Positions 14,857 to 53,170 of a stretch of 64,000 nucleotides of DNA are shown piece after piece. The stretch is from Nitrosarchaeum sp. (GTDB lineage: Archaea; Thermoproteota; Nitrososphaeria; Nitrososphaerales; Nitrosopumilaceae): positions 1,504,001 to 1,568,000 of the forward strand of contig OZ245020.1 of the NCBI GenBank assembly GCA_965223865.1, in the 5' to 3' direction. The notes beneath the pieces are model-generated. The model searched no databases and was not told the DNA's origin. It saw only the letters and a list, made by a program, of their open reading frames with translations. The position numbers and the translations under genes were made by a program. Position 1 is the first letter of the stretch, and each line of letters opens with the position of its first letter.

Positions 14857-14954
14857 GATTTTACAAATTTAGCGAGTTATAAAAAACACCAGATAATTAC
14901 CAAGTATGAAAATCAATTTGAAAATAACAGGTTTAAAAAATTTTGTAATTAATA

Positions 14955-15135
14955 GTAGGCATTGGTTGTAGCAATACAAATCCAATGCCAACCATCGTGC
15001 TTGATGAGGAGTGCTTTCAAAATTTGTATTTAACGGCGATGAACGATTTATCAGTAGTGGTTCTAAGACATGCTTTTTAAATTGGCAATAAAGTTAGTTT
15101 CTGAATTTAATTAGCATTTTGTTATCTATGCCTAC
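14955..15135 (+). ncRNA. candidate structured RNA (or MITE)
   Basis: GGCATTGG/CCAATGCC stem with inner TTGTA-GCAA-TACAA; second stem at 15070-15117; complementary ends GTAGGCAT/ATGCCTAC; TTTAAA box at 14932. Confidence 0.45.
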
Positions 15136-15361
15136 AGAAAAAAATTGACAATTTTAGTTTGTTTTAATTAATAGTCAGGATGTTCCATAATTGCCAAATA
15201 TAGAGTGAAATTCATCAGTATCAAACAGAAATAAAATTCAAAACTTGTCAATAACAAATGAGAAGAAATGGATGTCACAATGCATAGATACTAAACGAAG
15301 ATCTTCAGAATATCAGGCATGATAATGAAAATTTAATTGATATATTACAAAGTAATAGGCA

Positions 15362-16768
15362 ATAAGAGGCAAAGTCAAAACGTCAGCAAAAACTACTATC
15401 AATCAGATAAAGAAATCAGGAGTAAAATGGATACGATTACAGTTTTGTAATCCATTTGGCTTACTTCATCAATTAAGCATCCCCGCTGAAGAATTTACAG
15501 AAGATGCATTTGTTAATGGATTTCCATTAGACGGAAGTTCAATTCTTGGCTTTACCAGTATTGATAAATCAGATATAATACTGGTTCCCGACCCTCTAAC
15601 TTTTGTTATCGTACCAGAATATTTTGATACTTTTTCAGGAGACCATAATTATTACCAAACAAAATCCGCACGAATGTTTGCAAATATACATAAAGGATTT
15701 GGGGAGGGGCAATATTCAAGAGATTCAAGACACATTGCAAATAAAGCAGAAAATTTTGCAAAGAAATGTGGATATGATAAAACTTATTGGGCATCAGAAT
15801 TGGAATTTTTCGTTTTTGATAAAATTCTAGCAACCTCAAAAATCAGTAAATCAAACAAATCAAAAATTGTTTCCGGAGAAGCACCATGGATATCTCAAAA
15901 TGAAGAATCAGCGATACAAATCAAGAAAGGATACTATCGAGATTCTCCTTCTGATACTTTAACAAATTTCCGAGATGAGGTTTGTGAAGTGCTTAGTAGT
16001 TTTGGAATAAGAACCATTGCCCATCATCACGAAGTAGCAACTGCAGGACAAAGTGAGATAGTTCTGGCACATACAAGTCTGACTAAAATGGCTGACAGTT
16101 TTGTAACTGGAGTTAAAACGATTCGTGAAGTTGCATCAAAACATGAAATGATTGCAAGTTTTAATCCAAAACCCATTCCTAACGATAATGGTTCAGCAGT
16201 TCATATCAACCAGAGCTTGTGGAAAACAAAGAACAAAAAAGACTCAAACATGTTTTATGACCCTTCTGAAAAATATGCGGAGTTAAGCCAAACAGCTCTT
16301 TACTACATTGGAGGATTATTAGAGCATGCAAAAGCTCTTTGTGCCATTACAAATCCTTCCCCTCAATCTTATAATCGACTTGTTCCAGGCTATGAGGCTC
16401 CAACAAACATTGCCTGGGGTAAAATGAATCGTTCAGTCAGTATAAGAATTCCAGCCCATCACAAAAAACGACCTGAAAACAAGAGAATAGAATACAGACC
16501 TCCTGACCCTACATCAAATATCTATCTTGCAGAGACTGCAATTTTACTTGCAGGGTTAGATGGTATAAAAAAGAAAATTCAACCTCCAGAGCCGGTGGAT
16601 GTGAATACCTACAAATTATCAGATAGAGAGATGAAAAGACTTTCAATCAAGAAGTTACCAACCTCATTAAAAGAGTCAGTAAGTGCAATTCAATCAGATA
16701 ATGAATTTTTGAAACCGGTTTTAGAGAAGGATTTTCTAGAAATGTATATTGATCATTTGATTTCATGA
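15362..16768 (+). CDS. glnA: glutamine synthetase type I, probable ATA start
   Basis: ELEFF, HHEVA, PKP, NGSAVH, RLVPGYEAP, NRS, RIEYR. The N-terminal domain (KWIRLQF...DGSSILGF...SDIILVPD) is open in frame upstream of the track's ATG at 15674. Confidence 0.88.
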   Translation: MRGKVKTSAKTTINQIKKSGVKWIRLQFCNPFGLLHQLSIPAEEFTEDAFVNGFPLDGSSILGFTSIDKSDIILVPDPLTFVIVPEYFDTFSGDHNYYQTKSARMFANIHKGFGEGQYSRDSRHIANKAENFAKKCGYDKTYWASELEFFVFDKILATSKISKSNKSKIVSGEAPWISQNEESAIQIKKGYYRDSPSDTLTNFRDEVCEVLSSFGIRTIAHHHEVATAGQSEIVLAHTSLTKMADSFVTGVKTIREVASKHEMIASFNPKPIPNDNGSAVHINQSLWKTKNKKDSNMFYDPSEKYAELSQTALYYIGGLLEHAKALCAITNPSPQSYNRLVPGYEAPTNIAWGKMNRSVSIRIPAHHKKRPENKRIEYRPPDPTSNIYLAETAILLAGLDGIKKKIQPPEPVDVNTYKLSDREMKRLSIKKLPTSLKESVSAIQSDNEFLKPVLEKDFLEMYIDHLIS

Positions 16769-16818
16769 GATGATATTTCAGAAATAATAAGGAGTGATTG
16801 AAAAACTATTTTTGCAAT

Positions 16819-16956
16819 TTAAGAACCAGACTCCAGGTGGTCACATTTTGGACAATAATATTCCTTAGGCATATTTTCCTGTTTTTGACCTCTCCGGTTT
16901 TTTTCTATAATAGATTTGAGTTCCATCGGATGATCACATTTTTTACAAATTTTCAT
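16819..16956 (-). CDS. zinc-ribbon microprotein (45 aa)
   Basis: Manual translation MKICKKCDHPMELK...YYCPKCDHLESGS*. Confidence 0.65.
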   Translation of the reverse strand: MKICKKCDHPMELKSIIEKNRRGQKQENMPKEYYCPKCDHLESGS

Positions 16957-17125
16957 TTTTTATCTACAATTAATCCTTGTTAGCAGTTTTAATGGATTTT
17001 GTTTTCCATAAGTGATCATTATACGTAGATACCACCATATCCATAATTTTATCTTGGGTTAATTTTGACTTAAATTAATTGAATGATTACTGGAAAGAGT
17101 AGATCTTCAAAATCCGCAATATTTG

Positions 17126-17977: not shown

Positions 17978-18229
17978 AATTAACTGACAATTAATCAGAC
18001 TTAATATTTTATCAGTTCAAAATGTCAAGAAAATTCAAACATCTCAAGCATCACAGAAAACATAGTTAGTATCCTAGACAAATTCCCAACAAGAAGATTC
18101 CTAGCCAAAATTAAAAATTGTCTTTGGTCGGATCGGTTTTTTTAAAACTTTGTGCAAGAATTGGTCAAACCTTGATGAGAAATTAAAATTAAAACCAGTG
18201 AACAAAATTAATTTTTAAACAAAAAATAT

Positions 18230-18511: not shown

Positions 18512-18611
18512 AAAAATAATGATATTTTGTATTTTATAAGTATTGGTATTTGAAACCAATCATTACCAATCATTACCAATAGTATATATTGTGGTGTCAT
18601 AACGGAGGCAT

Positions 18612-19432: not shown

Positions 19433-19448
19433 TTGATAAATTTAATTT

Positions 19449-19853: not shown

Positions 19854-19905
19854 GGTAATATTCTGATCAAGTATAATGAAAGTTTTTTCATGTCAATTCC
19901 ATAGT

Positions 19906-23012: not shown

Positions 23013-23618
23013 ATGACTATGGCACAAACACTTTCCAAAAATAACATCATAATTGATGATATTGACAGACAAATTCTAAACTTGTTGATTTCAAATGCAA
23101 GAGATTCAACTAGAACTATTGTAAAGAAACTAGCAGGCATGGGAGTAAACATGTCTGAACGAGGCATAGGTAAGAGAATAGCACGACTAGAAAAACTAGG
23201 CATAATTCATGGCTATACCACAATGGTTGATCTCAATCAGGTAAACATGCCAATTTTGAGACTAGTTACTGTGAAATTTACATCTCCAAAAGACTTTGTA
23301 ACCAGACTAGAAGAGATGAAAGAGTATCTAAATGACGCACCATACTGTGACTTTTCAGCAAGAACAAATGGGAATATTGACTGGATTGAGCTGAAATTTT
23401 TCAACAATCACGAGCAGGCAAAACAAGAAGAGGATTTGTATCGAGCATGGTTTGGAGATATCATAGAAGATTACAGATCATATGACCTTGACATCCATAA
23501 AATGGGATGGCAGTTATTTGATGAGGATGATTTTAATCGGTTTATCCAAAATATGTGTAAAAGGGAAGGCTCAGAAACCTGTCCAAACATTAAACTCCAA
23601 ACTAGGAAAAAACACTAG
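23013..23618 (+). CDS. full-length Lrp/AsnC transcriptional regulator
   Basis: IDDIDRQIL...NAR...RIARLEKLGIIHGY HTH plus RAM domain. Confidence 0.88.
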   Translation: MTMAQTLSKNNIIIDDIDRQILNLLISNARDSTRTIVKKLAGMGVNMSERGIGKRIARLEKLGIIHGYTTMVDLNQVNMPILRLVTVKFTSPKDFVTRLEEMKEYLNDAPYCDFSARTNGNIDWIELKFFNNHEQAKQEEDLYRAWFGDIIEDYRSYDLDIHKMGWQLFDEDDFNRFIQNMCKREGSETCPNIKLQTRKKH

Positions 23619-26390: not shown

Positions 26391-26441
26391 ATTACTCCTA
26401 ATAATTGAGAATCTTATTCATACGTTAAATAGGAAAATCTT

Positions 26442-27266
26442 GTGGATTTAACATTGCAAATCGCAGATATTGAATTAAAACAATTATTTCCTATATCATT
26501 AACGACTACTCCTGCTGTTAGTATACGCAAAGAAAACAAAATGTGGGTAGCTACAGGAATGCTTGTTCATTATCTAGAATCATTTACTGATTCTCTTGTT
26601 GTGACAGATCAGCAAGAAGAACCAATAGGAGTTTTAGGAGGATTTGAAATAATAAAAAATGTTTTTGAAAATCCGACTTCGGAATTTTTTGACGAAAAAA
26701 ATGTCAGTGACGTTATGGATGAGGAAATAGTCAGAGTATTTTCAGACACAACTCTTCGAGAATTGTTAGAGATATGGCAGAAAACACGTAGGGCATTTTG
26801 TATTTTGCCAAATTATATTGGTGGATATTCAGCGATTTCTGCAAGAAAGTTATTAGAAGTTGGTGCAAACTGCAAAACAGATCTTACAATTTCTGATCTT
26901 CCATCAAAAGAAACCATATCATTTGACTATGGAAATACAATGGGCGAGATCATAAATTCGATGATTATGAATCGTACACGAAAATTATTGCTCAAAAATT
27001 CATCTGCTTTTATTAGTGACAGAGTGATTATCCAAACAATTGCTCAAGAGTTAAACTATCTTCGTAATACTGAAAACTTTTTAGATCTAAAATTTGAAGA
27101 ATCATTTAAAGTTGAAGATATTAAATGTGTCTCAGAGGATCTCAATTTTGCGGAACTATCAAAACTAATGTTCAGTATGATGCATCCTTATGTAATTCAC
27201 AAAGATCAAGTTTATACTCCTTGGGATGTTTGCATGACATTATTATCTGATAAAGTAAATTTTTGA
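26442..27266 (+). CDS. CBS-domain protein (probable start TTG 26454)
   Basis: Paralog of 38593 (TGMLxHYLESFTDSLVV ... TPWD). Confidence 0.8.
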   Translation: MDLTLQIADIELKQLFPISLTTTPAVSIRKENKMWVATGMLVHYLESFTDSLVVTDQQEEPIGVLGGFEIIKNVFENPTSEFFDEKNVSDVMDEEIVRVFSDTTLRELLEIWQKTRRAFCILPNYIGGYSAISARKLLEVGANCKTDLTISDLPSKETISFDYGNTMGEIINSMIMNRTRKLLLKNSSAFISDRVIIQTIAQELNYLRNTENFLDLKFEESFKVEDIKCVSEDLNFAELSKLMFSMMHPYVIHKDQVYTPWDVCMTLLSDKVNF

Positions 27267-29736: not shown

Positions 29737-30369
29737 ATTGCTATTTCTGTACTAGTATGCACTAAATAAATTACTGTGTATTTTTACAATCAAAATTATC
29801 AATTAATAGAAAGAATAAAGAGCAACATATCTATCGCATACATACCACAATTGTAAATCAATAAAACATATTCAACCTGAGCAACTGTGGCGTTGAAACT
29901 CCATTATAGAGAGTTTTTTTTGACACATCAACAAAAATTATGGATGATTTATCAGTTCTACGCAGTACTATTAATTAAAAATCACATACACATAATATGA
30001 AATCAAAAATACATGATGAAGAGTCGATAACAATAACTGGTTTGTTAGATGTGCTAACATCTGTTTGGAATGAAGAAAGATAAATTGGGTTGACATCCCT
30101 CAACAATCAATTCTTCTTCATGCTTAAAGTCAAATAAAATAATGGACTTTGTTCTCTAGATTTCTTTCAAATTACCCAGATGACTTGTGTGGGTGGTTAG
30201 AATTTTGAGTTTATTGGATAAGGATTATAAAAAAATCAAAGACAATCCATACATAAGAATAGTCTGGTAGAAGAAGATAATTTCGGTATTTACAATTCTT
30301 GTATCTACTAGTATTCTAATATGAGAAACGACATGAAGTTTATCTATTTCAGTAGAAAATTTGTAAATC

Positions 30370-30843
30370 ATGTACAAAACAATCCTTGTACCTCATGCTG
30401 GAACACCCGCTGGGGATGAGGCATTAAAACATGCTATTAGTGTTGCAAAGTGTAAGTCATCAAAAATAATCATTTTACATGTAATAGAGCCATGGTCTGA
30501 TCCAAGTTTTGGTTACTGGATAGAGCAAGAAACTACAGTCAAGGATCAGATAGACTCAATCTTTTCAAATCTCGAAGAAAGCGGCAGAAAGTTTCTTGCA
30601 GAGCGAGTGTCTCGATGCAGAAAAGAAGGTCTGTCTTGTGAGGGCATATTCAGAGTCGGGAAACCATCTGACTCTATCATAAAATACGCCAATGAAGAAA
30701 AGATAGATCTCATAATAATGGGCAAAAAGAAAAGGATTCCAAACTACAAGTCCATGTTCAAGATAGGAAGCGTAACAAAAAAAGTTCAAGAAAAAGTTGA
30801 CTGTTCAATTTTACTAGTTGATACAGATGACGAATCAGAATGA
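30370..30843 (+). CDS. universal stress protein
   Basis: YKTILVP...GKPSDSI...DLIIMG...GSV. Confidence 0.92.
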   Translation: MYKTILVPHAGTPAGDEALKHAISVAKCKSSKIIILHVIEPWSDPSFGYWIEQETTVKDQIDSIFSNLEESGRKFLAERVSRCRKEGLSCEGIFRVGKPSDSIIKYANEEKIDLIIMGKKKRIPNYKSMFKIGSVTKKVQEKVDCSILLVDTDDESE

Positions 30844-33474: not shown

Positions 33475-33954
33475 TCAAATTTTTTCCTTTTCTGTTTGCT
33501 TGTTACTGTTTGTTGATTGTGATTTGTCAGATTGTGAGAATGATTTGGCATATGAATCCACCATCATATGAAAATAGCTATCAAATGATCTGATTGCTTC
33601 AATTCTTATTTTTGTATATTGGTCCAAAAGTTTGGATGTGATTTCAATATTCTGAATATAGTTATTCTTGATTGATTCAGAATTTTTCTTAATTTGTTCC
33701 AATATGTCTTGTTCTACATTTAATTTGTCAAAAAATTCCTTTTCAGCAACATAACATGTGCCAAAAATGTCATCTAAAGTATGCAAGTATTGCGTGTAAA
33801 GATTAGAGTAATTCTGGAAAAGCAGAGGTATCTGCGATTCTATTTTTTTGATGACTTCTGAGGTGTTTTCTTTCATTATTTCGCAAATCGATGAATTTTC
33901 TTGGTTGTCTTCAATGTCCTCTTTGATTTGATTTTCTTTTATTTTCATAATCAC
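33475..33954 (-). CDS. all-helical protein, phasin-like
   Basis: PLLFQNYSNLY...EKEFFDK pattern; overlaps the stop of the upstream Usp gene by 4 nt. Confidence 0.7.
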   Translation of the reverse strand: MIMKIKENQIKEDIEDNQENSSICEIMKENTSEVIKKIESQIPLLFQNYSNLYTQYLHTLDDIFGTCYVAEKEFFDKLNVEQDILEQIKKNSESIKNNYIQNIEITSKLLDQYTKIRIEAIRSFDSYFHMMVDSYAKSFSQSDKSQSTNSNKQTEKEKI

Positions 33955-34421: not shown

Positions 34422-34559
34422 ATCTTCTTCCAGATTTTAGCTATGAAATAACATACCAAAACATAAAGCATGAACACCATTCTCACAACTGAGCATGCTC
34501 TAAAAATCAAGATTGAAAATGAACATTTCATTTATCACCATGACAAAATAATCTAAAGC

Positions 34560-34736
34560 ATGAAAGACGAGGCTGAATCATTGGTGTCAGATGTTCAGAA
34601 TTATGCTGATGGACTTGTTTTGGCAATACAAAAAGGAAGAATCCAGGAGGGTTTGGAGTATGTTCAAAAAATGACCAATCATCTGGATCAAGTCAAACAG
34701 TATCTAGAATTAAAAAAATCCATTCCAGAAAACTAA
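34560..34736 (+). CDS. small helical protein (58 aa)
   Basis: Manual translation MKDEAESLVSDVQNYADGL...KSIPEN*; its TAA abuts the antiporter ATG. Confidence 0.65.
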   Translation: MKDEAESLVSDVQNYADGLVLAIQKGRIQEGLEYVQKMTNHLDQVKQYLELKKSIPEN

Positions 34737-35714: not shown

Positions 35715-36140
35715 TTATTGAGATTTTAGGTTAGCTAATGTTTCCATTATGACTTTCATCTGTTCCATAATAATTTGTTGTAGGTCATCTAGTTTTTGAT
35801 TCAGTTGTTTAATCTCATCTCTTAACTGTTGATTTTCTTGTCTTAATTTTTCAAGCTCGGTTGAATCTGAATTACTTATCATCTTATTTCTTGAGGAAGA
35901 AGTATTGTTGTCATCAGAATCAAATCTTAGCTGTTCGTTAATTTGTTCTCTTGTAAGTTGGCTGTTCTTGACTATGGCATCTAGCATTTCTACTCTCTGC
36001 TAGTTGAGTCAATCACTGCCTCAAGTTCAACTTCTACTTTGGATGCGTTGCCTCTTTTTTCAATTTCAACTTCTAATTTATTTTCTAATTTTTGGTCACC
36101 AGAGCGTTCTATTCTTAGTTCCTTGTCTGCCTCTTCTCTA
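35715..36140 (-). pseudogene. frameshifted C-terminal remnant of a larger coiled-coil/surface protein
   Basis: ORFs 35990-36175 and 35715-35987 join by a frameshift at about 35990 (STSR/VEMLDAI); the 5' part is missing and it abuts the nitroreductase gene. Confidence 0.5.
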
Positions 36141-37178
36141 ATAAGTGAGAACTTTGTGTTTGTATAGAACGTCACTTACATCACGACGTAGTGTATGTGC
36201 TGTAGTGTCTCCATGGCCCATGCGTAACAAAATTTGTGCAAATCCCTCCTTTTCTATAATTTCCAGTAATTTTGGACGCAGTTCTGCAACTTCTATAGGT
36301 TGGCCAAAGAATGAAGCCCATAGATCTTGGCTGGCTCCGGCAAGCAAGATGTGTGCCAAAGCTTTGCCTGTAAGAACCCAATCTTTTGGCTCATCTGTCT
36401 TTGTTCCCAATATGGCTAAGATTGGAGAACCAGAGGCTAGCTGACGGTCCTTTGCAGCCTCGCCGTTTCCAACATCAAATGTGCGAACAACAAGAGTTCT
36501 AATTGAAGATTCTAAGTCACTTCGTCCATATCCATAGGCAGGTATGCCGTCTTTGCTTTTTGATTTACTGGAGCGAATCCATTTTACCAACTCTCTTCTA
36601 AATTTTCTATCTTTCATCTGTATTTTGTCTCCTTTGGAAATCAAATCGGATATGGCATTCTTTTTTTCGTCTTCTTTGATAATATGAAACCAAGTCTTGT
36701 TCTTTTTTGCAACATCTGCCATATAGTCAAGCAGAGAGTCTTCTACTTTGGTGTCATCAAATGGCATTCTGTTGGTGACTCTTTTTGGGATTGCTTTGAA
36801 TAGTTCCTTGTCTTCATCTGTGGGTTCATGTTTTTCACCTAGTCTTACAGATGCTATAATGTCAGGATTGTGAGGATCTGGAAGGATTTGTTCTTCTGCC
36901 TTGTATCCAAAGTATCTCATGGCCAGTTCAAGATGAAAGATGGCAGCACCGCAGCTAATGACCAGTTCCCTACTGCTAGGGTCTATTACTTCAAGTGCAC
37001 GAGTTTTGTCAGCGTGTAATTCTACCGTGTCGTGAATTATCTTAAAAACCCACGGTTGAGTGTTGTGTGTGGAAGGCGCCAAGATTGCATACTTGAGAAG
37101 AAACTCTAACTTTTCAAAAGGCATTTTATCATGTGGAAAGTCTTTTTCAGGTATTTCCCAGATGTTGAATTCATTCAT
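36138..37178 (-). CDS. Acg-family FMN-binding nitroreductase
   Basis: APSTHNTQPW, ISCGAA, RVTNRMPF, QPIEV, LRMGH. Confidence 0.9.
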   Translation of the reverse strand: MNEFNIWEIPEKDFPHDKMPFEKLEFLLKYAILAPSTHNTQPWVFKIIHDTVELHADKTRALEVIDPSSRELVISCGAAIFHLELAMRYFGYKAEEQILPDPHNPDIIASVRLGEKHEPTDEDKELFKAIPKRVTNRMPFDDTKVEDSLLDYMADVAKKNKTWFHIIKEDEKKNAISDLISKGDKIQMKDRKFRRELVKWIRSSKSKSKDGIPAYGYGRSDLESSIRTLVVRTFDVGNGEAAKDRQLASGSPILAILGTKTDEPKDWVLTGKALAHILLAGASQDLWASFFGQPIEVAELRPKLLEIIEKEGFAQILLRMGHGDTTAHTLRRDVSDVLYKHKVLTY

Positions 37179-37426
37179 AGAACAATCATGGTTTTTCAGA
37201 TTAAAATTTATTCTGATTAATTTCTATCTTGGAATGGGTTTTTAATAGAATGTATGATCTTTTAGGATTTTTAATGATCAAACCTTAAATCTGGTTTTGA
37301 TTATCTTTTTAGGTTACGTTTTCGAATTTGATAATACTGTATCTTTTTTTATATCGTTGTGAGAAAATGCATTATGCAAGAAACCAAGTTCGTTTTTTAC
37401 TTTAGGTCTGGTTTAGGGTTGAAAAG

Positions 37427-38346: not shown

Positions 38347-38535
38347 TTATTCCAATTTTGTTTTTGCTTTTTTGATCATTGCCATCTCTTCTTTAAGATG
38401 TTTTTTTAGAATGCGTTCATGGTCTTTTTTGTGCGAACTGTATGCCTTGTTTAATGCCTGTTTTGTTTTTGCTTTTTTTATTGCAGCATTGAATTTTTTG
38501 TGAATTGTGTTCACTTGTGCAGTATAGCTTGCCAT
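38347..38535 (-). CDS. small basic helical protein
   Basis: 62 aa, K/A/H-rich. Confidence 0.75.
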   Translation of the reverse strand: MASYTAQVNTIHKKFNAAIKKAKTKQALNKAYSSHKKDHERILKKHLKEEMAMIKKAKTKLE

Positions 38536-38592
38536 GAATGGTTTTTTTATTCATTGTTTAAATTGTATCATTAAAGCAAAAATTAGACATTC

Positions 38593-39495
38593 TTGTCTAG
38601 TTTTACATATTTTGAAAATAACAGAAAAAAAGAACTAGAGTACATTGAAGAATGCCTTAAAGAAGGAAAGAATGTTGTGGTAGATGACACAAACCTCACT
38701 CAAGCAATATGGAAGCAGCACATAGATCTTGTCAAAAGGTACAATGCCAAGGCGATTGGAATTTTCATGAACACCTCTACTGGTATGTTGATTCATTACT
38801 TGGAGTCATTTACAGATTCACTTGTTGTAACAGAAGAAAATGAAAACCCAATTGGGGTAATTGGAGGACGAGAGATAATTGAGAACGTCTTCAAAAACCC
38901 ATCTTCAGAATTTTTTGACAATACTACAGTGGAACAAATTACTGACAAAAATCTAGTAATTTTATCAGACACAACAAGCCTCGGAGAGCTTCTTGAGGCA
39001 TGGAAGAAGACAAGACGTGCATTTTCCATCATTCCAAATAATTTGGGAGGATATTCTGCAATATCTGCAAGAAAGGTACTAGAAATCGGCACAAATTGCA
39101 TTACTGATCTGACCATCTCTGAATTGCCCAAAAAAGAAGTCGTCACATTTGAGCAAGACAGCACTATCAGAGACATCATTGGTTTGATGCTGGAAAAAAA
39201 TACAAGAAAACTAGTTTTAAAAGATACAAACTATTTTATCAGTGATCGCTTGCTGATTCAAAGTATTGCACAGGAATTTGATTTTTTCAGAAATGTAAAA
39301 TTCTTAGAACACAAAGTTGAAAAGTCATTCAAGCTAGAAGAGATAAAAAAGATTTCCAAGGATGTCAATTTGGCAGAACTCTCAAAAATCATGTACACGA
39401 TGGTTCATCCTTATGTGCTTTATCAGGATCAAGTAGTCACTCCTTGGGACATCTGTATGGCATTGCAATCTGACAGGATAGAATTTTTGGGATGA
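38593..39495 (+). CDS. chimeric ORF: kinase (AAA_33-like) fragment fused to a CBS protein
   Basis: GKNVVVDDTNLT...IFMNTS joined to TGMLIHYLESFTDS..., the paralog of 26442. Confidence 0.7.
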   Translation: MSSFTYFENNRKKELEYIEECLKEGKNVVVDDTNLTQAIWKQHIDLVKRYNAKAIGIFMNTSTGMLIHYLESFTDSLVVTEENENPIGVIGGREIIENVFKNPSSEFFDNTTVEQITDKNLVILSDTTSLGELLEAWKKTRRAFSIIPNNLGGYSAISARKVLEIGTNCITDLTISELPKKEVVTFEQDSTIRDIIGLMLEKNTRKLVLKDTNYFISDRLLIQSIAQEFDFFRNVKFLEHKVEKSFKLEEIKKISKDVNLAELSKIMYTMVHPYVLYQDQVVTPWDICMALQSDRIEFLG

Positions 39496-40987: not shown

Positions 40988-41551
40988 CTATGGGATTGCT
41001 CTGCTGTACAATTTGCCTTCTAAAGCCATCTTGTACATTTCTGCAACATATGGATTCTCACCAGGAGTTTCTGCACCAAGTTCTACGAGTCTAGCATATA
41101 CTCTGACTACGTATGCTAATGCACCCATGAATGCAACTACCACACCCATGTTAAACATCCAGTGATTTGGAACTGCAAAGATTTCCTCTACGAACCAAAA
41201 GTGCCACATCTCATTGACTCCAATTGTAAACATGGTTGCAAGGTAACCAAGAATGGTCATCTTCAATCCAGTGTTAATTGAGTTATTTGGACCTCTAAGA
41301 ACTGGAACTTTTCTATCATACATAGCTGCTGCTGCCCATCCAAGAGGTAATGTAATGAAGTGGGAGTATAGCCACCAGTGTGCTGGTGTAAATGCACTAT
41401 CTCTGATAGAGGTTTGATGTAAAGAACCATCAACGAAGTTGTCTACTTCGACTGATGCTGCAGTGGATCCCATAGCAATAACGATGAGCCAGATTTTCTT
41501 TAGTCTCTGAATCTCAACTTCTTTTGGGATTAATGCGGGCATCTGTGCCAT
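40988..41551 (-). CDS. amoC: ammonia monooxygenase subunit C, stand-alone copy
   Basis: MAQMPALIPKEVEIQ start; DGSLHQ...RDSAFTPAH metal site; NEMWHFWFVEEIFAVPNHW. Confidence 0.97.
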   Translation of the reverse strand: MAQMPALIPKEVEIQRLKKIWLIVIAMGSTAASVEVDNFVDGSLHQTSIRDSAFTPAHWWLYSHFITLPLGWAAAAMYDRKVPVLRGPNNSINTGLKMTILGYLATMFTIGVNEMWHFWFVEEIFAVPNHWMFNMGVVVAFMGALAYVVRVYARLVELGAETPGENPYVAEMYKMALEGKLYSRAIP

Positions 41552-41967: not shown

Positions 41968-42478
41968 CTAAAGCATTAATTCTATTTTCCTAAAAATCAA
42001 AATATGTAATAAAATATTCATCTTCCAGCAAATCCTGACCACTGCTCTTAGAATCTCAATTATCTTCCAAGCAAATCTGTCAATATTGATGTTTGGTTCT
42101 GCAATTATTGCTATTGCATTTTTGTATATCGGAAAACTCATTATCACGACATCTTCTCGACGCGATGCTGAATACTTTACCCGCCCAAGATCATTATCAT
42201 GCTTTTTTCTTTTTGACACTGGCAGATATCTCTTTGAGTATATCATCTAGATACACTTGACTTAACAAAGTCTGCCTTCTTGCTTTCTTATCTCCTAAAA
42301 AGCCACCTGCGACTATCTTGCCAGATTCGTTTATCATTGCAGCAAATCTTATGTATTGCATTTTCAGTATTTTTTTGCATTTTTGGCCATACATCTCTTG
42401 GTACATGTTATTGTAGGAAGGTTCTTTTTTCAGACTAAATGAAGTTCTTGGTTCTTCTTCTACTAATGTCATTATCAA
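41968..42478 (-). pseudogene. frameshifted DUF6659-like gene
   Basis: IRFAAMINESGKIVAGG and LGRVKYSASRREDVVIMSFP lie in different overlapping frames. Confidence 0.7.
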
Positions 42479-42899: not shown

Positions 42900-43865
42900 A
42901 TGGCTCTAAAGATGTCAGATTACAAGACAAGCGTACATAATGACTGGTGTCCAGGATGTGGGGATTTTGGAATTCTCAATGCAATTCAGATGGCATTGGC
43001 AAAATTGCAGATAAAAAGAGATAAGGCCGTAATTTTTTCTGGAATTGGATGTTCAGGAAAGACCTCCCATTTTGTAAATGTCAACGGGGTCCACTTTCCG
43101 CATGGAAGATTGCTGACTGCTGCACAGGGAGCAAAAATTTGTAACCCAGAGCTTACGGTAATTGGCACTGCAGGAGACGGAGATGGTTTGGGAATTGGGG
43201 CAGGTCATTTTGTTGCTGCAGGACGGCGAAACATCGACATTACCTACCTTATCTTTGATAATGGGGTTTATGGTTTAACCAAGGGACAGGCATCACCAAC
43301 GCTAAAGCTAGGAGAAAAGACAAAGTCTCTTGAAAATCCAAATCCAAATTATGGTGTTAATCCAATTGGCCTTGCACTAGCAAGTGGATATACATTTGTC
43401 GCACGTAGCTACTCCTACAGCATGAAGCATCTTGTAGATGTCATAATGAAAGGAATAAAACACAAGGGTCTTTCTTTCATCCAGGTTTTACAGCCATGCC
43501 CTACCTACAATGATGTCAATACGAGGGATTGGTATGCAGGGTTAGACAACACGGATCCCAAAACCAACAAGTCCATACCAAGAATATACGAGCTTGAACA
43601 GACAGGATATGAACCGGTTGTAAGACAAAATACTCGGTTAGAACTGCATGAAAAACTAACTCAGGCATTAGTCAGATCACTAGAGTGGTGAGACAAGATT
43701 CCAACTGGAGTGTTCTACCAAAATCCATTCATTTCAACATATGACAGAAGAATTGAGGAAATCATTCCAAATTACATCGAAAATCCTCCAACAAAGCAGA
43801 GAATCGAAGATAGTGGAAGAACATTGACATCTGTTTCCAAACTGCTCGATTCGTTGAAAGTTTAA
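42900..43865 (+). pseudogene. 2-oxoacid:ferredoxin oxidoreductase beta subunit with in-frame TGA
   Basis: WCPGCGD, GIGCSG, GDGD, YGLTKGQ, QPCPTYN; reading continues EW*DKIPTGVFYQN to TAA at 43865. Confidence 0.85.
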
Positions 43866-44277
43866 AATTTTGAAGAGAAGATAAATTTTGTGCTACCAGT
43901 ATTCTTGATATGTGCAAATAACATTCAGATCCTGCTTGTTCTACCGTTTAATTTTAGATATTCCCGTAATTCTGAGAGAGACTTGAATTTGTCATACTCA
44001 TTGGGTTGTTATAACAGCATCCTTTAATTTTTTTCCTAAAAACATTTCTGTTTGATTACAGAAATTATTATCAATAGTCACGCTAATAGTCTAGAGCCGC
44101 AACATCTTAATCCTCAATAAATTGTGGATTTTAATTGTCCAGACAATCTTTAATAAAAAAATTTCAGAGATCCTTGAAAGATGTGATATTAAAAAGATGA
44201 TAAAATTCTAACATTTCTTGAAATCAATAATGAGAATATCAGTGGTAGTTTAAAGAATGCCAATCTTACTTTTAAGT

Positions 44278-44592
44278 ATGAAAAAACTTGAAGTGATTGT
44301 TCGGCCTGAACTAAAAGACAAGACTGTTTCTGCAATCAAAAAGAAGGGAGTTGGAGGGGTTACTACCTATCCTGTACAAGGTCTGGGCTCTGAAGACCCA
44401 CCACTGGTGGGCCAGTACTTTTCTAAAGACAAGATAATCTGTATTGTTGATGATCCTAAAGTAGATGGCATTCTTGATGCAATTGCTAATGTAGCATGCA
44501 CAGGTGAAAAAGGAGATGGTAAAGTCTTTGTAGTTCCTGTAGAAGATGCGCTTGACATTTGTACAAAGAAGCGTGGAATAGATTCTATCTAA
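44278..44592 (+). CDS. P-II family signal protein with short T-loop
   Basis: MKKLEVIVRP...TGEKGDGKVFVVPVEDA. Confidence 0.88.
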   Translation: MKKLEVIVRPELKDKTVSAIKKKGVGGVTTYPVQGLGSEDPPLVGQYFSKDKIICIVDDPKVDGILDAIANVACTGEKGDGKVFVVPVEDALDICTKKRGIDSI

Positions 44593-44841: not shown

Positions 44842-45279
44842 TCATTTTGTACCTTTGGTAATCAGTACGGGGCACTTTGCATGTCCTAGCACTCCATTTG
44901 CAACACTTCCCAAAACAATCTTTCTAAAACCGGTTCTTCCATGAGAACCCATTACAATAAGATCAATTCTGTTGGCATCTGCAAAAGACACTATTCCATC
45001 TGAAGACGAGGGATTGTGAACTACCTTAATTGAGAGCTGTACGTTTTTGGCTTTTGCCTGATCTTCTAGTTTTTTGAGCATGGAAGTGGCAATATCTTCT
45101 TCTTCATCCTGGATTTCTTGCATTCGCGTAATAGAAATTCCAGTCGAATCAGACACCTTGGATTGTATGACAGTCATTACTATTAGTTTGGATTCAAACT
45201 TTGCTGCAATCTCCAGTGCTTTCTCAAATGCCTTTTGGGAATATCCAGAACCATCAAATGGTACAAGAATCTTTTTCAA
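44842..45279 (-). CDS. universal stress protein
   Basis: KILVPFDGS...DLIVMGSHGRTG...LGSVA. Confidence 0.95.
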   Translation of the reverse strand: MKKILVPFDGSGYSQKAFEKALEIAAKFESKLIVMTVIQSKVSDSTGISITRMQEIQDEEEDIATSMLKKLEDQAKAKNVQLSIKVVHNPSSSDGIVSFADANRIDLIVMGSHGRTGFRKIVLGSVANGVLGHAKCPVLITKGTK

Positions 45280-45326
45280 TATGAAACGAGATAGACTTTC
45301 TAGAATTTATATCCTGTAATTGATTT

Positions 45327-46643
45327 TCAGGTTGAATGTTCTTTAAGCCACTTGCCGACTTCTGGCCAAAGTTTTTTGTAAGCCGTCTTGCTAATACACA
45401 GCCCTACATGACCTGTTGGAAATTCCAGAGTTTTCTTGTCATTACTAGAAATAACATCAGTTATTGTTCTGCTTGATTCTGCAGAAACCAGATCATCGTT
45501 TGTTCCAACTATGTTCAACACGGGCATGGTAATTTTTTTGAGGTCTATCAGCTTATTTCCTAGCATCATCTTGTTTTGAATCAACAGATTATTTTTGTAA
45601 ATGTCATTTATGATCTGCTCAAAAGCCTTTCCAATGATTGGCACACTGTCATAAAGCCAAGACTCTACTGCTAAAAACTGTTTAATTTCGTTTGCACTTC
45701 TAGGCTGGCTAAAGTAAAAGAAATACTTGGAGGCAGCTTCCAGTGGATTGCGCAACCAGAATGCGATATTGAGAAACGATGATGGGACATTTCCAAACGT
45801 ATCTACAAACTTTTTGACATCAAGTTCTCTGATCCATGACTCAAGTACTGTTGGAGATTTATCAAAATCAGCTGGTGTTGCATGCAGAACAAGACTCTTT
45901 ACGTCTTTTGGGTGTAATGCAGAATAAATCAAAGACAGTATTCCGCCCCAGCAGTACCCAAACAGAATCACATTTCTAGAACCTGTAATTTCTTCTACCT
46001 TGTCTACTGCATTTTCAAGATAGTCATGTGCATAGCTTGCAAGCGACATGTTCTCCTCCTTGGCTGTGGGCATTCTCCAGTCAGTAGCGTACACATCAAA
46101 TCCTAGCTGTTGGAATTGTCTTATTACACTTGTTTGTGGAAGCAAATCCAGTATGTAGTGCCTGTTTATCAAGGAACCTACCACCAAAATTGGTGTCTTG
46201 AATTTTTGTGGCGAGTCTGTTTTGTAATGATGAACCTCGAATCTTCCCTTCATCGGGATTACCTCAGAAGGTGTTCGATTTATCGCATCTCTGACAGGTT
46301 CTACTATATTATCATAATTATAGATTACATTTTCAAGATGCTTGTATAATTTATCATGATGTATTGAAGTGGCAAATCTTGTGTATGATTTAATAAAATT
46401 TGATAGTGTTTTTGAAAAATCAGATTTTTTTAAATGATTTTGTATTTCAGCGTCAAAAATGCCTCTAACCTCGTCTTGAATCTTTTTGCCAGTAGGTTCT
46501 TCTAAATTGGAAACACGTTCTACAGCTTTGGACCAAGAATGAAAAAGTGCCATACTATATTGCATTTGAAGATTCAACGAGTTTGAAAGAAAGTTATCGT
46601 AAAGTGAAAATACATTATCAGAAATATTCTTCGAGTCTGTCAA
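45327..46643 (-). CDS. phaC: class III poly(hydroxyalkanoate) synthase with long helical N-terminal extension
   Basis: TP, PILVV.SLINR.YILDL, DW, lipase box GYCWGG, D (GTNDDLV), H (TGHVG). Confidence 0.85.
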   Translation of the reverse strand: MTDSKNISDNVFSLYDNFLSNSLNLQMQYSMALFHSWSKAVERVSNLEEPTGKKIQDEVRGIFDAEIQNHLKKSDFSKTLSNFIKSYTRFATSIHHDKLYKHLENVIYNYDNIVEPVRDAINRTPSEVIPMKGRFEVHHYKTDSPQKFKTPILVVGSLINRHYILDLLPQTSVIRQFQQLGFDVYATDWRMPTAKEENMSLASYAHDYLENAVDKVEEITGSRNVILFGYCWGGILSLIYSALHPKDVKSLVLHATPADFDKSPTVLESWIRELDVKKFVDTFGNVPSSFLNIAFWLRNPLEAASKYFFYFSQPRSANEIKQFLAVESWLYDSVPIIGKAFEQIINDIYKNNLLIQNKMMLGNKLIDLKKITMPVLNIVGTNDDLVSAESSRTITDVISSNDKKTLEFPTGHVGLCISKTAYKKLWPEVGKWLKEHST

Positions 46644-46745
46644 TTCCTACTGCTACTACGAATTATCAATATAATGTTATTTCTTATTGCCAAGCTTGAC
46701 TTTGGTTTAATAATCTAATTATCCAGTTCTTTGTAGAATATCATA

Positions 46746-49815: not shown

Positions 49816-50247
49816 TTATTTTACCACCAATACCTGAACCTTTGAATTATTTACTATTCCATGTGCAACGCTTCCAACATAACTTGCCTTTGATGATCCC
49901 AAACCTCTTGAACCTATAACTATGATATCAAATTTGTTCCTTGTTGCAAAGCCAACTATGGTATCTACTGCATTTTTTGATGACGCAATTTTTTCATTGA
50001 ACTCTATTCCATGACGGGCTGCGCTGATCTTGGCCGATTCCATGAACTTTTTTGCTAGTTTGCTCAAGTGTGCCCTGTAAGATTTGACATTTACTTCGTA
50101 TGATGGAGGAAATTCTGGCAGTACATGCATACCGGTAATAATTCCTTGCGATTGCCTTGCAAGCGATATGGCATGGTTTAACCCTCTAATGGAGTTTGGA
50201 GAGCCATCCAGGCCAACAAGTATTTTTTTGAATTTGTTTTGTAACAT
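49816..50247 (-). CDS. universal stress protein
   Basis: KILVGLDGS...IGSRGLG...GSVA; ATG at 50247 fits the promoter position. Confidence 0.93.
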   Translation of the reverse strand: MLQNKFKKILVGLDGSPNSIRGLNHAISLARQSQGIITGMHVLPEFPPSYEVNVKSYRAHLSKLAKKFMESAKISAARHGIEFNEKIASSKNAVDTIVGFATRNKFDIIVIGSRGLGSSKASYVGSVAHGIVNNSKVQVLVVK

Positions 50248-50402
50248 AAATACAGATCGAATTAGCAAGATAATAGCATAAGCATAAATCTCAACATGGA
50301 ATCTGGCCCTATCTTTCTCATGTATTGCCACCTGCAAACCAGATCATTTCATTTTGCTTTCCAATGACATGGTAATTTTTCTTCATGTTTCTTGTATTGT
50401 TA

Positions 50403-50879
50403 TTATTCTCTAGATGTTTGCTTGATTATTGAGGCCCAGTAATCAATTAGGTTTTTGTTTATTTTTTCAAAAGATACTGAATTTTTATTGAATGCCTCGA
50501 TATTTTTGGAAAGAATCTCAAGAGATTTGAGCACCAGTTGGTTTTGCAGATTCCAAGACATTGTAGTTTGGTCTGCAAATGACTTTGCAATCTCCATTGT
50601 TGCATCTGAGGAACTGTCGGGATTTATTCCTAGTTGTTCTGATACGGTTTGCTGAAGCAAAAGTGCATGCTCTACATTTTTTTTTCTTGATTCAATTATC
50701 TCTTGTTGAAGATCAGATACTGACTGAAGATAACTTGCAGCGTTTGCCTTTACTTCATTGAGGTATCTAGAAAGGCTGTTTTCAAAAGCGGCATATACGT
50801 CCTGGGAAATTTCTTTGGATTTTGATGATTCTTCTAATTTTTTAGGATGTTGTGGTGATGGGGATGAGGTAACGCTCAA
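50403..50879 (-). CDS. all-helical protein, phasin-like
   Basis: Similar to 18612 (YLQSVSDLQ; NQLV; NIEAFN.N..F..INKN.I..W). Confidence 0.7.
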   Translation of the reverse strand: MSVTSSPSPQHPKKLEESSKSKEISQDVYAAFENSLSRYLNEVKANAASYLQSVSDLQQEIIESRKKNVEHALLLQQTVSEQLGINPDSSSDATMEIAKSFADQTTMSWNLQNQLVLKSLEILSKNIEAFNKNSVSFEKINKNLIDYWASIIKQTSRE

Positions 50880-51438
50880 TTTGGAGAATATAATGTAATT
50901 TTAAAATTTAAAGTTTGACTAGATTTTCATTTTTGGTTTTAATTCAACCAGATGAACTCATCGAATATATTGTATCAATTTTTCAAAAGGCGAATAACAG
51001 TTTTCCAAGTATAGTACAATCCAAAGATCACACAGTTGAGGAGATTGCTCCGGTCAACTTTCCTCTTGGTTGACTGTTATTCAATAGTGTTACAGCAATG
51101 TACCTATTACAGATATTCATAAATTTCAAGAGTGAAAATATTTGATACATTGTGATACATTGTTGCGATATCTCTCAATAGTGAAAATTGTATGTCATGA
51201 TTAAGAAATGCAATAGAATATTGAAAGCGATGAGGATGTAATGCTATTTCTCCGCCATTCATAAAGTGGATTTGAGACGATTTACATTTTTGACCTTGTG
51301 ATGTGCTTCTGACGTATCTTCCTTATTCACTTGGCAGTCCTCATCAGTTTTCATAATTATAATCAGAATAGAATTCATTGTTTTTGTTTGATATTTTCAA
51401 GTTAACCTAACTAAAAATTCCCAATAATTGAGAAAGCA

Positions 51439-51954
51439 TCAAGAAATATTGAAGCTTAAATGGTCATCGTTTATCTCAAACTCCTTAACTGGGCGATTAA
51501 TTGAGTCCATGATGTCTTCTATTGCATATTTTTGAATCATACTCCACTTGTTGCCTAAACTGTGAACCATAGTATATCTTGCATCTCCTTCATCTGATTT
51601 TTTTATCTTAAATGGAATACCATGAGAGATACAGTTTTTTTTAATCGTTGCCAATGCAGACTCTAAAGTGATTTGACCGTGACGGCACATGATCTGTTTT
51701 TTCAGATCATCGGCACATATACTGCCCAATTTGTTAATGTCTTTCTTGTTTACTGAATTAACACATGTTTTGATAAATTCTGGACTCAGCCAAACATAAC
51801 GCAGATCCTGAAAATTACTATACACTTCGTTATGTCTTGCTAAAATGTTGTTGACATGGTTGTTCAGCGTTATTCTTTTTTCACGTGACTCTGTTTTAAG
51901 ACCATCTAAGGTGTCATTGTCTATTCTGAATCCCTTGACAGTATTATTGCCCAT
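51439..51954 (-). CDS. ribbon-helix-helix regulator with C-terminal ligand domain
   Basis: VKGFRIDND...ITLNNHVNNIL; HSLG.KWS. Confidence 0.72.
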   Translation of the reverse strand: MGNNTVKGFRIDNDTLDGLKTESREKRITLNNHVNNILARHNEVYSNFQDLRYVWLSPEFIKTCVNSVNKKDINKLGSICADDLKKQIMCRHGQITLESALATIKKNCISHGIPFKIKKSDEGDARYTMVHSLGNKWSMIQKYAIEDIMDSINRPVKEFEINDDHLSFNIS

Positions 51955-52182
51955 TTATGAAATTAGGGAGTTAGACACTGAAAAGTCTGTTGGTATGGAG
52001 ACTTAATTAAATAGGTTGCAGTAGTGTTGGGTTGCGGTTATGTTTTTGAGAGATTTTGTCAAATCAGAGTTATTTTGAAGCGTGTGTGATCTCAAACCCA
52101 TGGATTCTTTTTGTCATAATAGATTACCCTACAACTCTCAGAGCAAAAATATCTGGAATTTTCAAGTTCTTTTCCGCAGTTT

Positions 52183-52563
52183 TTACACTTTTGGTTCTTC
52201 ATTAAAGGCCCTACTTCTAACTATCACAATCTCTGTATCAGAACCATTCATTTTGGCATGAATCTCTTTTACGTTGCTTTTGTACAAAAAGAGCTTTTTC
52301 CCATCATCATGTATCATTCCAGAGACATCAAGCAGTTTTGCATCAATCAAGCTTTGCAGCCTTCTATAAACAGTGCTGATTGGTATTTTTGTTTCAGAGG
52401 CAAGAACAGATGCACATTTTGACTCTGACCTTGTCACATCAAGAATCTGTCTGCAATACTTGTCAGAAAGTATGTTCAAAATTTTTTCATTTAACTCTTC
52501 ATCTGTATGGTTACTAATGTAGAATGTTTTTTCTTTTGGTTTTTCAAGATATGATATCTGCAT
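52183..52563 (-). CDS. ArsR-like HTH regulator
   Basis: LSDKYCRQIL...IPISTVYRRL...DGKK.FLY.S. Confidence 0.87.
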   Translation of the reverse strand: MQISYLEKPKEKTFYISNHTDEELNEKILNILSDKYCRQILDVTRSESKCASVLASETKIPISTVYRRLQSLIDAKLLDVSGMIHDDGKKLFLYKSNVKEIHAKMNGSDTEIVIVRSRAFNEEPKV

Positions 52564-52732
52564 GGAAGAGTAACAGTAAATGAAATTTATTAAATTAGTA
52601 TACACTTTCCAACCTTGGAAGCTACTGCAACTTTGTGATACATTGTATATACAAAATTAGAGATTTTGATTTTCTTAAAAACCATAACAGAAATATGAAA
52701 AAGGTAAAAAAGAAAAAGTCAGATAAAAAAAA

Positions 52733-53035
52733 TTAGCTTGTTGGAGTCATCATAGCAGCACGTTCTTTGGCTTTCTTATCAACGGGCGCATCTATGTACT
52801 GCCCAGGTTTTGCTTGACAGTCACCTACATTTACTGAATATCCATCCAAGGTTTCAGCAATACATCCCTTGTCAGTAACTGCTATCACTTTTACCATCTC
52901 GATATTTTCTTCAGGTGCCACATACCACATTAAATATGCAAAAAGTATAACTGCACCTACACCAATAACTCCACCTATAATAAATAGGGAATTCTTACTA
53001 GATGATTTTTTTGGTTGCCTTTTGATTGCAGACAT
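52733..53035 (-). CDS. single-TM protein with OB-like domain
   Basis: TM helix followed by VIAVT..GC.AET.DG. Confidence 0.75.
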   Translation of the reverse strand: MSAIKRQPKKSSSKNSLFIIGGVIGVGAVILFAYLMWYVAPEENIEMVKVIAVTDKGCIAETLDGYSVNVGDCQAKPGQYIDAPVDKKAKERAAMMTPTS

Positions 53036-53170
53036 GAGGCAAAATTACGTGAATATCAAATAAAAAATAATAAGACATTTTCCACTAATGATTTTCATCT
53101 ATGAAAATTACAACTTAAACCATTTGGATATTGTATGTAATGCAATAACTATAAAACAAAAAAAAGAAGG

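Follow-up and report, generated by a model that had tools for sequence, protein, structure and literature searches.

The window, a 64,000-nucleotide stretch of the genome of Nitrosarchaeum sp., carries a recurrent dyad before genes of several families, and the thirteen strings listed for it in the original prediction are all present (13/13). Scores given for individual sites come from a model built on counts from promoters outside the window, with the window-derived consensus as its starting point. On the minus strand, a 22-bp box at 14894–14915, with a probable third unit extending to ~14927, precedes the 4xCBS gene 14008–14856 (score 16.6, TATA at 13). On the plus strand, a weak box at 26396–26411 lies before the CBS gene 26442–27266 (score 5.8, p 0.026), and a box at 30313–30327, identical in the relative G004, before the Usp gene 30370–30843 (score 7.6, p 0.012). 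Two boxes are arranged back to back: 34480–34495 (−; score 10.1; also identical in G004) serves the Usp gene 33951–34421, followed by a 159-aa ORF (33475–33954) for which no family match was found, whilst 34504–34519 (+; score 13.2) precedes a 58-aa ORF (34560–34736) and a Na/Ca antiporter gene ending at 35693. A weaker box with an N3 spacer (37221–37235, −; score 7.3) stands before the Acg-family FMN oxidoreductase gene 36138–37178, which matches NF047509 above the cut-off; a possible further weak box (38529–38544, +; score 6.7, TATA at 12), absent from the first list, precedes the CBS gene 38593–39495.

In the right-hand part of the window, boxes lie before the P-II gene 44278–44592 (44221–44236, +; score 9.1, TATA at 12) and the Usp genes 44842–45279 (45324–45338, −, N3 type; score 11.9) and 49816–50247 (50288–50302, −; score 12.4), so that, as had been claimed, all four Usp genes of the window carry one (4/4). 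A weak box at 46687–46702 (−; score 6.1, p 0.024) is located between a class III phaC-like gene (45327–46643, −) and the gene of a P-type cation ATPase (+), which ends at 49487. The box at 50924–50939 (−; score 13.0) precedes a phasin-like gene (50403–50879), a label that we treat as a lead only, with a putative phasin cluster, of low recognition value, among its atlas neighbours. A CsmR-family winged-helix regulator with the recognition helix IPISTVYRR is encoded at 52183–52563 (−), the start codon ATG at 52563 giving 126 aa; the box before it (52606–52621, −; score 8.6, TATA at 12, 48 nt to the ATG) makes it a candidate for autoregulation. Finally, a three-unit array with a 13-bp period (53076–53110, −; dyad scores 11.9 and 16.8) precedes the gene for a 100-aa small membrane protein (52733–53035). 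The strongest sites are those at 14897, 34504, 50924, 50288, 45324, 53079 and 34480, and the weakest those at 26396, 46687, 37221 and 30313. No box lies within promoter range of the window's cdc48.

The element is a ~22-bp box, tgAWWWYCA-N4-TGRAAWT, with the dyad core WWWYCA-N4-TGRAAW; some sites comprise three units with a 13-bp period. The palindrome first described is present, but the element is longer, and of the two spacers proposed N4 holds (21 versus 6.0 expected, p 1e-6) whereas N3 alone does not (6 versus 3.1, p 0.09). Every site lies 11–14 nt upstream of a TATA-like box in gene orientation, as predicted, with 37221 placed best at 14–15. A matrix trained solely on the 13 window sites was applied to 842 TATA-anchored promoters outside the window, where scores of at least 11 occur at 15/2526 positions with spacers of 11–13 and at 18/31154 with other spacers (p 5e-11). 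An equal frequency in housekeeping promoters, which would have undermined the prediction, was looked for: scores of at least 7 are found in 0/39 named housekeeping promoters and in 0/150 promoters from evenly spread regions. In the reverse test with the out-of-window model, all 13 sites have empirical p values of at most 0.026 against 4210 wrong-spacing windows. The box at its fixed distance before TATA is confirmed as a genuine promoter element. The earlier caution about AT-richness was apt in this genome of 34% GC: beyond the window, matches to a loose consensus paired with a crude regex for TATA are hardly enriched, and this way of scanning was abandoned as a detection method for its weak signal there. 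EM for sites was limited to 5% because an uncapped, free-spacer EM drifted to ~230 sites.

Genome-wide the box marks roughly 30–60 promoters, so that the original estimate of about 13 was too low. Target families are CBS, Usp, Hsp20, PAC2, P-II and cupredoxins, with a spare thermosome also among the targets; outside the window, 4/25 scored Usp genes have a box. The densest 64-kb bin, which holds 16 of the 92 candidate sites, is that overlapping the window's right half. A third unit lies 13 bp upstream in 17/92 candidate sites, and such arrays precede two paralogues of the winged-helix factor, a rhodanese, a cupredoxin-domain gene and small membrane proteins, as well as CBS and Usp genes. The BRE of box promoters is purine-poor (purine 0.37 versus 0.54 at −6 to −2, p 4e-6), and the placement of the box upstream of such a BRE supports an activator-like geometry. 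We found no published description of a regulon of this kind in the literature.

The box recurs across Nitrososphaerales. Across the full set of GTDB species genomes, exact matches fall at 38 loci, of which 17 are archaeal and 15 of these are titled Thaumarchaeota or Nitrososphaerales-level. The anticipated conservation upstream of orthologues is borne out by a same-offset box at 13/15 Hsp20 loci of the top family and at 17/29 Usp loci. The box is conserved in genomes of 45–65% GC, and GC-rich deep families also have it, with a reversed-pattern control near zero (for example 16 versus 0 in G290); targets in these deep lineages include three FAD flavoproteins, a molybdopterin oxidoreductase, the ferredoxin of an oxoacid:ferredoxin oxidoreductase and DsrE-like proteins. 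In G004, too close a relative to inform, box positions show 3/96 mismatches versus 42/720 in the flanks. Acg was dropped as a comparative anchor: among 40 relatives, a full-length copy turned up in just 1 other. In one family (f15) the factor family is present in 38/38 genomes, yet the box is found at only 1/13 Hsp20 loci; three genomes without the factor family (G029, G293 and G307) have one pattern match each.

The gene at 52183, named as an 'ArsR' among the candidate binders in the original prediction, turns out to encode a member of the most likely binding family. The factor has 11 paralogues in the genome, four of which share an identical IPISTVYRR helix, and is homologous to CsmR (HVO_1209) of Haloferax volcanii: CsmR of L227 matches the family profile over residues 6–107 (E 4e-24), pairwise identity is 22–32%, its 8 best BLAST matches in the genome are paralogues, and the recognition-helix signature IPxxTxYRR is common to both. 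The family tree, in which the long branch of CsmR attaches to a second such branch, does not place CsmR, and a one-to-one orthologue relation is no more than possible. The model of the factor (pLDDT 85.7) has Phr (PDB 2P4W), the closest solved fold, as its top PDB match (TM-score 0.74 over the query, identity 16%). Phr, which is longer (~200 aa), likewise controls hsp20 genes, but is a repressor that binds at the start site. The predicted homodimer (0.52 versus 0.00 for the best control; contacts agreeing at 100%, pLDDT at least 86) has a β-strand interface at residues 90–99; 20/30 solved pairs and 1/23 single chains reach the mark applied, in which resemblance to structures already solved may play a part. 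CsmR is itself described as a ~110-aa winged helix with a C-terminal β dimer interface and a Phr-like fold, reported as the top match (PMC13286277, in excerpt), the architecture predicted here.

The CsmR ChIP-seq box, TATCA-N4-TGATA, lies upstream of BRE/TATA (PMC13286277, in excerpt), and its N4 spacer and position match those of our box, as compared via the published consensus and scoring of L227 rather than a matrix of published sites. In L227 the promoter site before arlA1 takes second place among ~4300 positions under a model trained on ammonia-oxidising archaea, and four haloarchaeal paralogues lacking the helix signature have no such promoter boxes. The half-site here (TGRAAW) is A/G-richer, and the three-unit arrays and number of paralogues also differ from CsmR. 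The targets differ too, being stress and dormancy genes here versus archaella and chemotaxis for CsmR; in our genome (99.98% complete) we found no archaellin match and, via PF06745, no full-length KaiC-like CirA partner, only two partial matches. Taken together, the homology and the likeness of the sites make it likely that the box is the docking site of a CsmR-family protein.

One paralogue, G000:C1:420648-420980, is conserved within a CBS-regulator-Usp-LDH island, and its best 30 orthologue loci have a fixed-position box in 30/30, a CBS gene in 29 and LDH in 25. In 162 genomes with this paralogue, matches with right and wrong spacing number 537 versus 253, compared with 111 versus 103 in 88 genomes without it; within genus g13 alone the figures are 182 versus 111 and 65 versus 60. 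Wrong spacing (356 matches, 250 genomes) served as the control because a reversed-pattern control (131 matches) was too lenient. Usp matches per genome have a median of 9 with the conserved paralogue and 1 without (82 versus 51 genomes), its presence dividing Nitrosopumilaceae into Usp-rich and Usp-poor genomes. The factor gene sits within an island of targets, such that co-loss could yield co-occurrence, and kin genomes are not independent. This paralogue is the most probable master copy, with the window's paralogue and those in mobile cargo probably reading the same or a three-unit box locally. No box lies upstream of the conserved paralogue itself, and a strong box is also lacking before several island genes of induced families (LDH, DnaJ, P-II g470 and Usp g461).

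Box, position, conservation, co-occurrence with the factor and homology to CsmR were computed directly; the mechanism that we propose from them is conditional. A CsmR-family dimer would bind the dyad about one helical turn upstream of TATA and, at promoters that are mostly leaderless with a poor BRE, would most likely help TFB/TBP loading. A dormancy-type set (Usp, CBS, Hsp20, the proteasome chaperone PAC2, a spare thermosome, P-II, Acg, PHA storage and cation pumps) would be switched on under limited respiration, for which low oxygen is the most likely cause. We consider this explanation, taken whole, to be probable; activation is on balance favoured over repression, and low oxygen or energy limitation is a slightly better than even choice of signal. 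In a sponge thaumarchaeal symbiont, UspA, HSP20, DnaJ, two CBS, LDH/MDH, TPR, P-II and two regulators are induced in in-situ hypoxia, but not in anoxia, versus normoxia (p<0.1, 17–20 genes; 10.1101/2023.02.27.530229), and the box target families appear to match this set at the level of gene family rather than promoter. The iron dependence of CBS and Usp proteins in N. maritimus, where a second MDH, a CNNM protein and P-II increased alongside them (PMC12974425), and the redox enzymes among deep-lineage targets also speak for this choice of signal. The DosR regulon of Mycobacterium tuberculosis and the lxa locus of Burkholderia cenocepacia similarly place several Usp, α-crystallin/Hsp20, an Acg-type nitroreductase, a cation P-type ATPase and genes for storage-polymer synthesis under a common motif within an island (PMC3721108, in excerpt). 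Such gene content under one motif is found here, the ATPase and phaC sharing only a weak box. The linked factor, however, is a CsmR-type wHTH and not a two-component or Fnr/Crp-type regulator; the lxa motif, TGA-N6-TCA, has opposite polarity and different spacing; and low-oxygen induction, shown for DosR and lxa (PMC3721108, in excerpt), is a prediction here.

A partly overlapping explanation, which we regard as possible without favouring it, is that several paralogues with different signals use the box, the 13 sites then falling into two or more regulons, one of Usp/CBS genes and one of copper or envelope genes with three-unit arrays. The 11 paralogues with their shared helix, the genes that the arrays precede, and the plastocyanin, DUF302 and SHOCT genes adjoining haloarchaeal relatives are consistent with this. 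Three-unit sites also occur at CBS and Usp genes, however, and are no closer to paralogues than two-unit sites (6/17 versus 20/75 within 10 kb), so that the arrays are not supported as paralogue-local sites. Of the 'one unidentified activator' first proposed, the shared regulator site stands but a single factor is not supported, given 11 paralogues and at least two site types.

That the CsmR-family protein is a repressor or dual regulator, released by stress, is less likely than activation. Phr and ArsR-type folds, to which it is akin, are mostly repressors. Moreover, deletion of csmR in Haloferax raises its targets, although the authors infer positive control from box position (PMC13286277, in excerpt), and the position of our box leaves BRE, TATA and the start uncovered, with the purine-poor BRE likewise pointing away from repression.

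It is improbable that the same box and factor family respond to heat or protein damage as an archaeal heat-shock regulon. The Hsp20s, PAC2 and spare thermosome among the targets, the fold of the heat-shock regulator Phr, and the rise of UspA, CBS and Hsp20 at 32 °C in N. maritimus would suit such a signal, and the authors of the latter work interpret their data as heat stress (PMC12974425). Yet expression of the CBS and Usp proteins is confined to 32 °C under Fe-replete conditions and is off at 32 °C under Fe limitation, and thermosome alpha is flat (PMC12974425). The box-free cdc48 and the poor fit of Acg, PHA genes and deep-lineage redox enzymes also argue against heat.

Still less probable is another reader, either an Lrp/AsnC protein like CopR of Pyrococcus furiosus or double-HTH, HVO_0163-like proteins. 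CopR is an activator whose motif, TTNNCAWWWTGNNAA, lies directly upstream of BRE and forms a similar dyad, TTNNCA...TGNNAA, but it has an N3 spacer, where N4 dominates here, and is an Lrp/AsnC octamer with a TRASH domain and a copper signal (PMC7830388, in excerpt). HVO_0163-like genes lie near three box clusters, and an AsnC-type HTH is induced in one symbiont. Among 67 motif-selected archaeal loci, however, the CsmR-type family recurs in 9, the double-HTH type in 1 and the window's Lrp has no BLAST match, and the spacing-specific excess tracks the CsmR-type paralogue. The copper motifs of N. viennensis were set aside, as their sequences differ from the box (PMC7785015, in excerpt). That the matches arise by chance from AT-richness, or that the box is a general core-promoter element read by one of the many TFBs, could draw on the low GC content, the high background of the loose pattern and the 13 TFB-like genes of the genome, but is very improbable and already contradicted by out-of-sample enrichment, the housekeeping promoters, dyad symmetry and conservation at high GC.

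Returning to activation by a CsmR-family dimer under limited respiration, the broadest form of this proposal, to which we give slightly less than even weight, is an order-wide hypoxia/dormancy regulon of Nitrososphaerales, among them the nitrifiers that dominate the ocean, convergent with bacterial DosR and Fnr-type regulons, under a 110-residue CsmR-family activator without a recognisable sensor domain. The same protein–DNA pair, which serves motility in haloarchaea, would have been rewired from that role, controlling anaerobic redox enzymes in deep lineages that do not nitrify and Usp/CBS/Hsp20 dormancy genes in ammonia oxidisers. This would answer the remark, in the available text of PMC13286277, on csmR relatives with another role in Nitrosopumilaceae, and the 'heat' proteins of N. 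maritimus could be reinterpreted accordingly. Ammonia-oxidising archaea are globally important nitrifiers and thrive at the edges of oxygen-minimum zones; in the literature we found no transcription factor or regulon for their low-oxygen response. Since the amo and nirK-like genes have no box, the role of the regulon would be protection of the cell and not the tuning of nitrification. The protein family, the box and the list of targets are now open to in vitro test, and a marker set is on offer for oxygen stress in metatranscriptomes. The regulon may be the low-oxygen switch of ammonia-oxidising archaea.

The box, a WWWYCA-N4-TGRAAW dyad upstream of TATA, is a real, conserved regulatory element. 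All 13 palindromes listed by the original prediction are found in the window at the proposed fixed position, the proximal half ending 11–14 nt 5′ of a TATA-like box in gene orientation; at most of these sites the start codon lies 46–50 nt from the proximal half-site end, consistent with leaderless promoters. The accompanying warning over AT-richness was well founded, as a loose pattern gave an unconvincing result beyond the window, and the positional test carries the evidence. A matrix trained on the 13 window sites only, when applied to 842 TATA-anchored promoters outside the window, reached scores of at least 11 at 15 of 2526 positions with spacers of 11–13 versus 18 of 31154 elsewhere (p = 5e-11), and scores of at least 7 at 36 versus 120 positions, respectively. 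A score of 7 is reached neither by any of 39 housekeeping promoters, identified through NCBIfam names, nor by any of the 150 scored promoters (of 155) from 20 evenly spread regions; the proposed refutation, an equal match frequency in housekeeping promoters, therefore fails to refute the box. Conversely, when a model was built from counts on promoters outside the window, all 13 sites had p ≤ 0.026; this check is not fully independent, as that model started from a window-derived consensus.

Of the two spacers originally allowed, N4 is well supported (21 versus 6.0 expected) and N3 is minor (6 versus 3.1). The full element of approximately 22 bp, tgAWWWYCA-N4-TGRAAWT, consists of 9-bp units recurring with a 13-bp period; a third unit is present in 17 of 92 candidate sites, including window 53076–53110, and spacings of 24–27 form a second maximum in the histogram. 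A frameshifted Hsp20 gene in two reading frames (window 53174–53616, −) lies just upstream of this three-unit array. The BRE region has a purine fraction of 0.37 in 39 box promoters and 0.54 in 832 others (p = 4e-6); a purine-poor BRE would be expected at promoters to which TFB is recruited by an activator (Ptr2-type activation).

The genome under study (G000; 2.01 Mb, 34% GC, 99.98% complete) holds amoA, and therefore belongs to an ammonia-oxidising archaeon (AOA); the window is its interval C1:1504001–1568000, and close homologues carry database names indicative of Nitrosopumilaceae. Its 2157 genes were called with an in-house codon-usage script, from which the g### numbers derive, so start codons are approximate. 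Outside the window, sites at −45 to −51 precede 70 of 1698 genes, the counts for two control intervals being 33 and 44; we estimate 30–60 true box promoters. At the same threshold a site precedes 6/16 CBS, 4/25 Usp, 2/7 Hsp20 and 6/42 cupredoxin-like genes, and none of 10 TFB genes; further targets are PAC2, a spare thermosome, nitroreductase, CNNM, P-II and rhodanese genes. No box was found at the amo cluster, the nirK-like gene or the core phaEC pair. Large expansions in the genome affect Usp-domain ORFs (41, fragments counted), TFB-like genes (13), Hsp20 matches (12) and thermosome-like genes (6).

Within the window, the labels Acg (NF047509), Na/Ca antiporter and class III PhaC-like hold, the last scoring below cut-off, whilst ‘phasin-like’ stays a lead only. 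The extra class III phaC-like gene (45327–46643, −) lacks an adjoining phaE; the sole phaE match in the genome (C1:1214826–1215185) adjoins another phaC. The Acg-family gene (36138–37178, −) is full length in one of 40 relatives searched (G038, a genome of another family; 45% identity), suggesting that it may have been acquired recently, together with its weak box. A stand-alone second amoC copy (40988–41551, −) lies inside the stress island, the main amo cluster being at C1:690–693 kb; no box was found at promoter distance from this copy. Apparent signs of decay at the island edge are a DUF6659 gene split in two pieces (41968–42478, −) and a 2-oxoacid:ferredoxin oxidoreductase beta gene (42900–43691, +) that stands alone and falls short of the model length. 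To the right of the window, G000:C1:1568001–1600000 (records L054 and L055) contains numerous boxes, frequently three-unit arrays at divergent promoters, alongside two paralogues of the candidate factor discussed below; this region is mobile cargo already wired for the box regulon.

Across relatives, a box at the same offset precedes 13 of the 15 top-scoring family Hsp20 genes (one from this genome) and 17 of 29 Usp loci (three not scorable), but in family f15 only 1 of 13 Hsp20 genes. Of the 151 genomes searched in the order, 73 contain a match to a stricter pattern, and GC-rich deep families have a sharp consensus with TTTAW 12 nt away. An exact-pattern scan of all GTDB species genomes returned 38 loci, 21 scattered bacterial and 17 archaeal, 15 of the latter titled Thaumarchaeota or Nitrososphaerales-level. 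Deep-lineage targets include Hsp20, Usp, CBS, DsrE-like, ArsR and DUF7521 genes, and, among redox functions, three FAD flavoproteins, a molybdopterin oxidoreductase and an oxoacid:ferredoxin oxidoreductase ferredoxin.

The candidate reader of the box is a family of small winged-helix proteins with 11 members in the genome, to which the originally nominated window ‘ArsR’ (52183–52563, −) belongs. In ORF clustering of 67 motif-selected archaeal loci this family ranked third (9 loci), behind CBS and Usp. The conserved paralogue g460 (C1:420648–420980) is 82–100% identical across its 30 best orthologues, whose loci have a fixed-position box in 30/30, a CBS gene in 29/30 and an LDH gene in 25/30. 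Among 250 family genomes, with wrong-spacing matches as the control, the 162 with the g460 type have 537 right-spacing versus 253 wrong-spacing matches, and the 88 in which it was not found 111 versus 103; this comparison is weakened because the genomes are related and the island may be lost as a whole. Inside one genus the figures are 182 versus 111 with the g460 type and 65 versus 60 without. Median Usp matches are 9 with the g460 type and 1 without. Where the g460 type is missing, one or two members of the family are mostly retained, possibly corresponding to a tandem pair at C1:1254880–1255567 (L099:14880–15567 in the retrieved record); that pair has diverged, with altered recognition helices, and may serve a distinct, core role. 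The window Lrp/AsnC-type gene (23013–23618, +) is a weaker candidate, with no BLAST match in the 67 motif-selected loci; its protein is 100% identical to that of C1:1718104–1718709, and the pair is, judged by this identity, a recent duplication.

The predicted g460 structure (pLDDT 85.7) matches Phr best, as does CsmR. Modelling supports a g460 homodimer with an interface of beta strands 90–99, which scored 0.52, the best control scoring 0.00. That mark, attained by 20/30 solved pairs and 1/23 single chains, may stem from resemblance to already solved structures. No sensor domain is evident in the factor, and a search of the genome for a full-length KaiC-type partner found none; one DUF7521 gene adjoins another factor paralogue. 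In deep Nitrososphaerales (records L145, L146, L164 and L187) a box and a gene for a DUF7521 membrane protein, a candidate sensor or anti-activator, come immediately after the factor gene.

Both the box type and the protein family are already known, since 2026, from Haloferax. H. volcanii CsmR (HVO_1209) is reported to bind TATCA(N4)TGATA 5′ of BRE and TATA; its targets rise upon csmR deletion, although the authors nonetheless argue for activation, and relatives with another role are mentioned in Nitrosopumilaceae (PMC13286277). Using a pattern derived from the primers of that report, we retrieved csmR, standing before two archaellin genes, from two metagenome records. CsmR matches the family profile (E = 4e-24), its eight best BLAST matches in the genome under study are family paralogues, and its recognition helix is nearly the same as that of the AOA family. 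In the family tree, CsmR sits on a long branch that joins a second long branch. On the csmR-bearing record L227, the AOA-trained box model ranks the site upstream of cheY first and that upstream of arlA1 second of about 4300 positions. Four plasmid-borne haloarchaeal paralogues lack the helix signature, and no boxes of this type were found at their promoters.

We infer that the factor binds the box, and likewise infer the sign of control and the signal. For N. maritimus, detection of several CBS and Usp proteins is reported at 32 °C under Fe-replete conditions only, and not at 32 °C under Fe limitation; a second MDH, CNNM and P-II also rose at 32 °C relative to 27 °C. The authors interpret these data as heat stress and report that ammonia starvation, copper and peroxide elicited no response (PMC12974425). 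Oxygen drawdown in the fastest cultures would fit better than temperature alone. In a sponge thaumarchaeal symbiont under in-situ hypoxia, 19 of 20 changed genes were up, including UspA, HSP20, DnaJ, two CBS, LDH/MDH, TPR, P-II and two regulators; the list for a second symbiont was similar, and the comparison of anoxia with normoxia showed no such rise (10.1101/2023.02.27.530229). The g460 island itself comprises CBS, Usp, LDH, DnaJ and P-II genes, and the box gene set parallels the DosR and lxa gene sets (PMC3721108). In the open-access literature searched, we found no description of this regulon of ammonia oxidisers or of its probable role at low oxygen.
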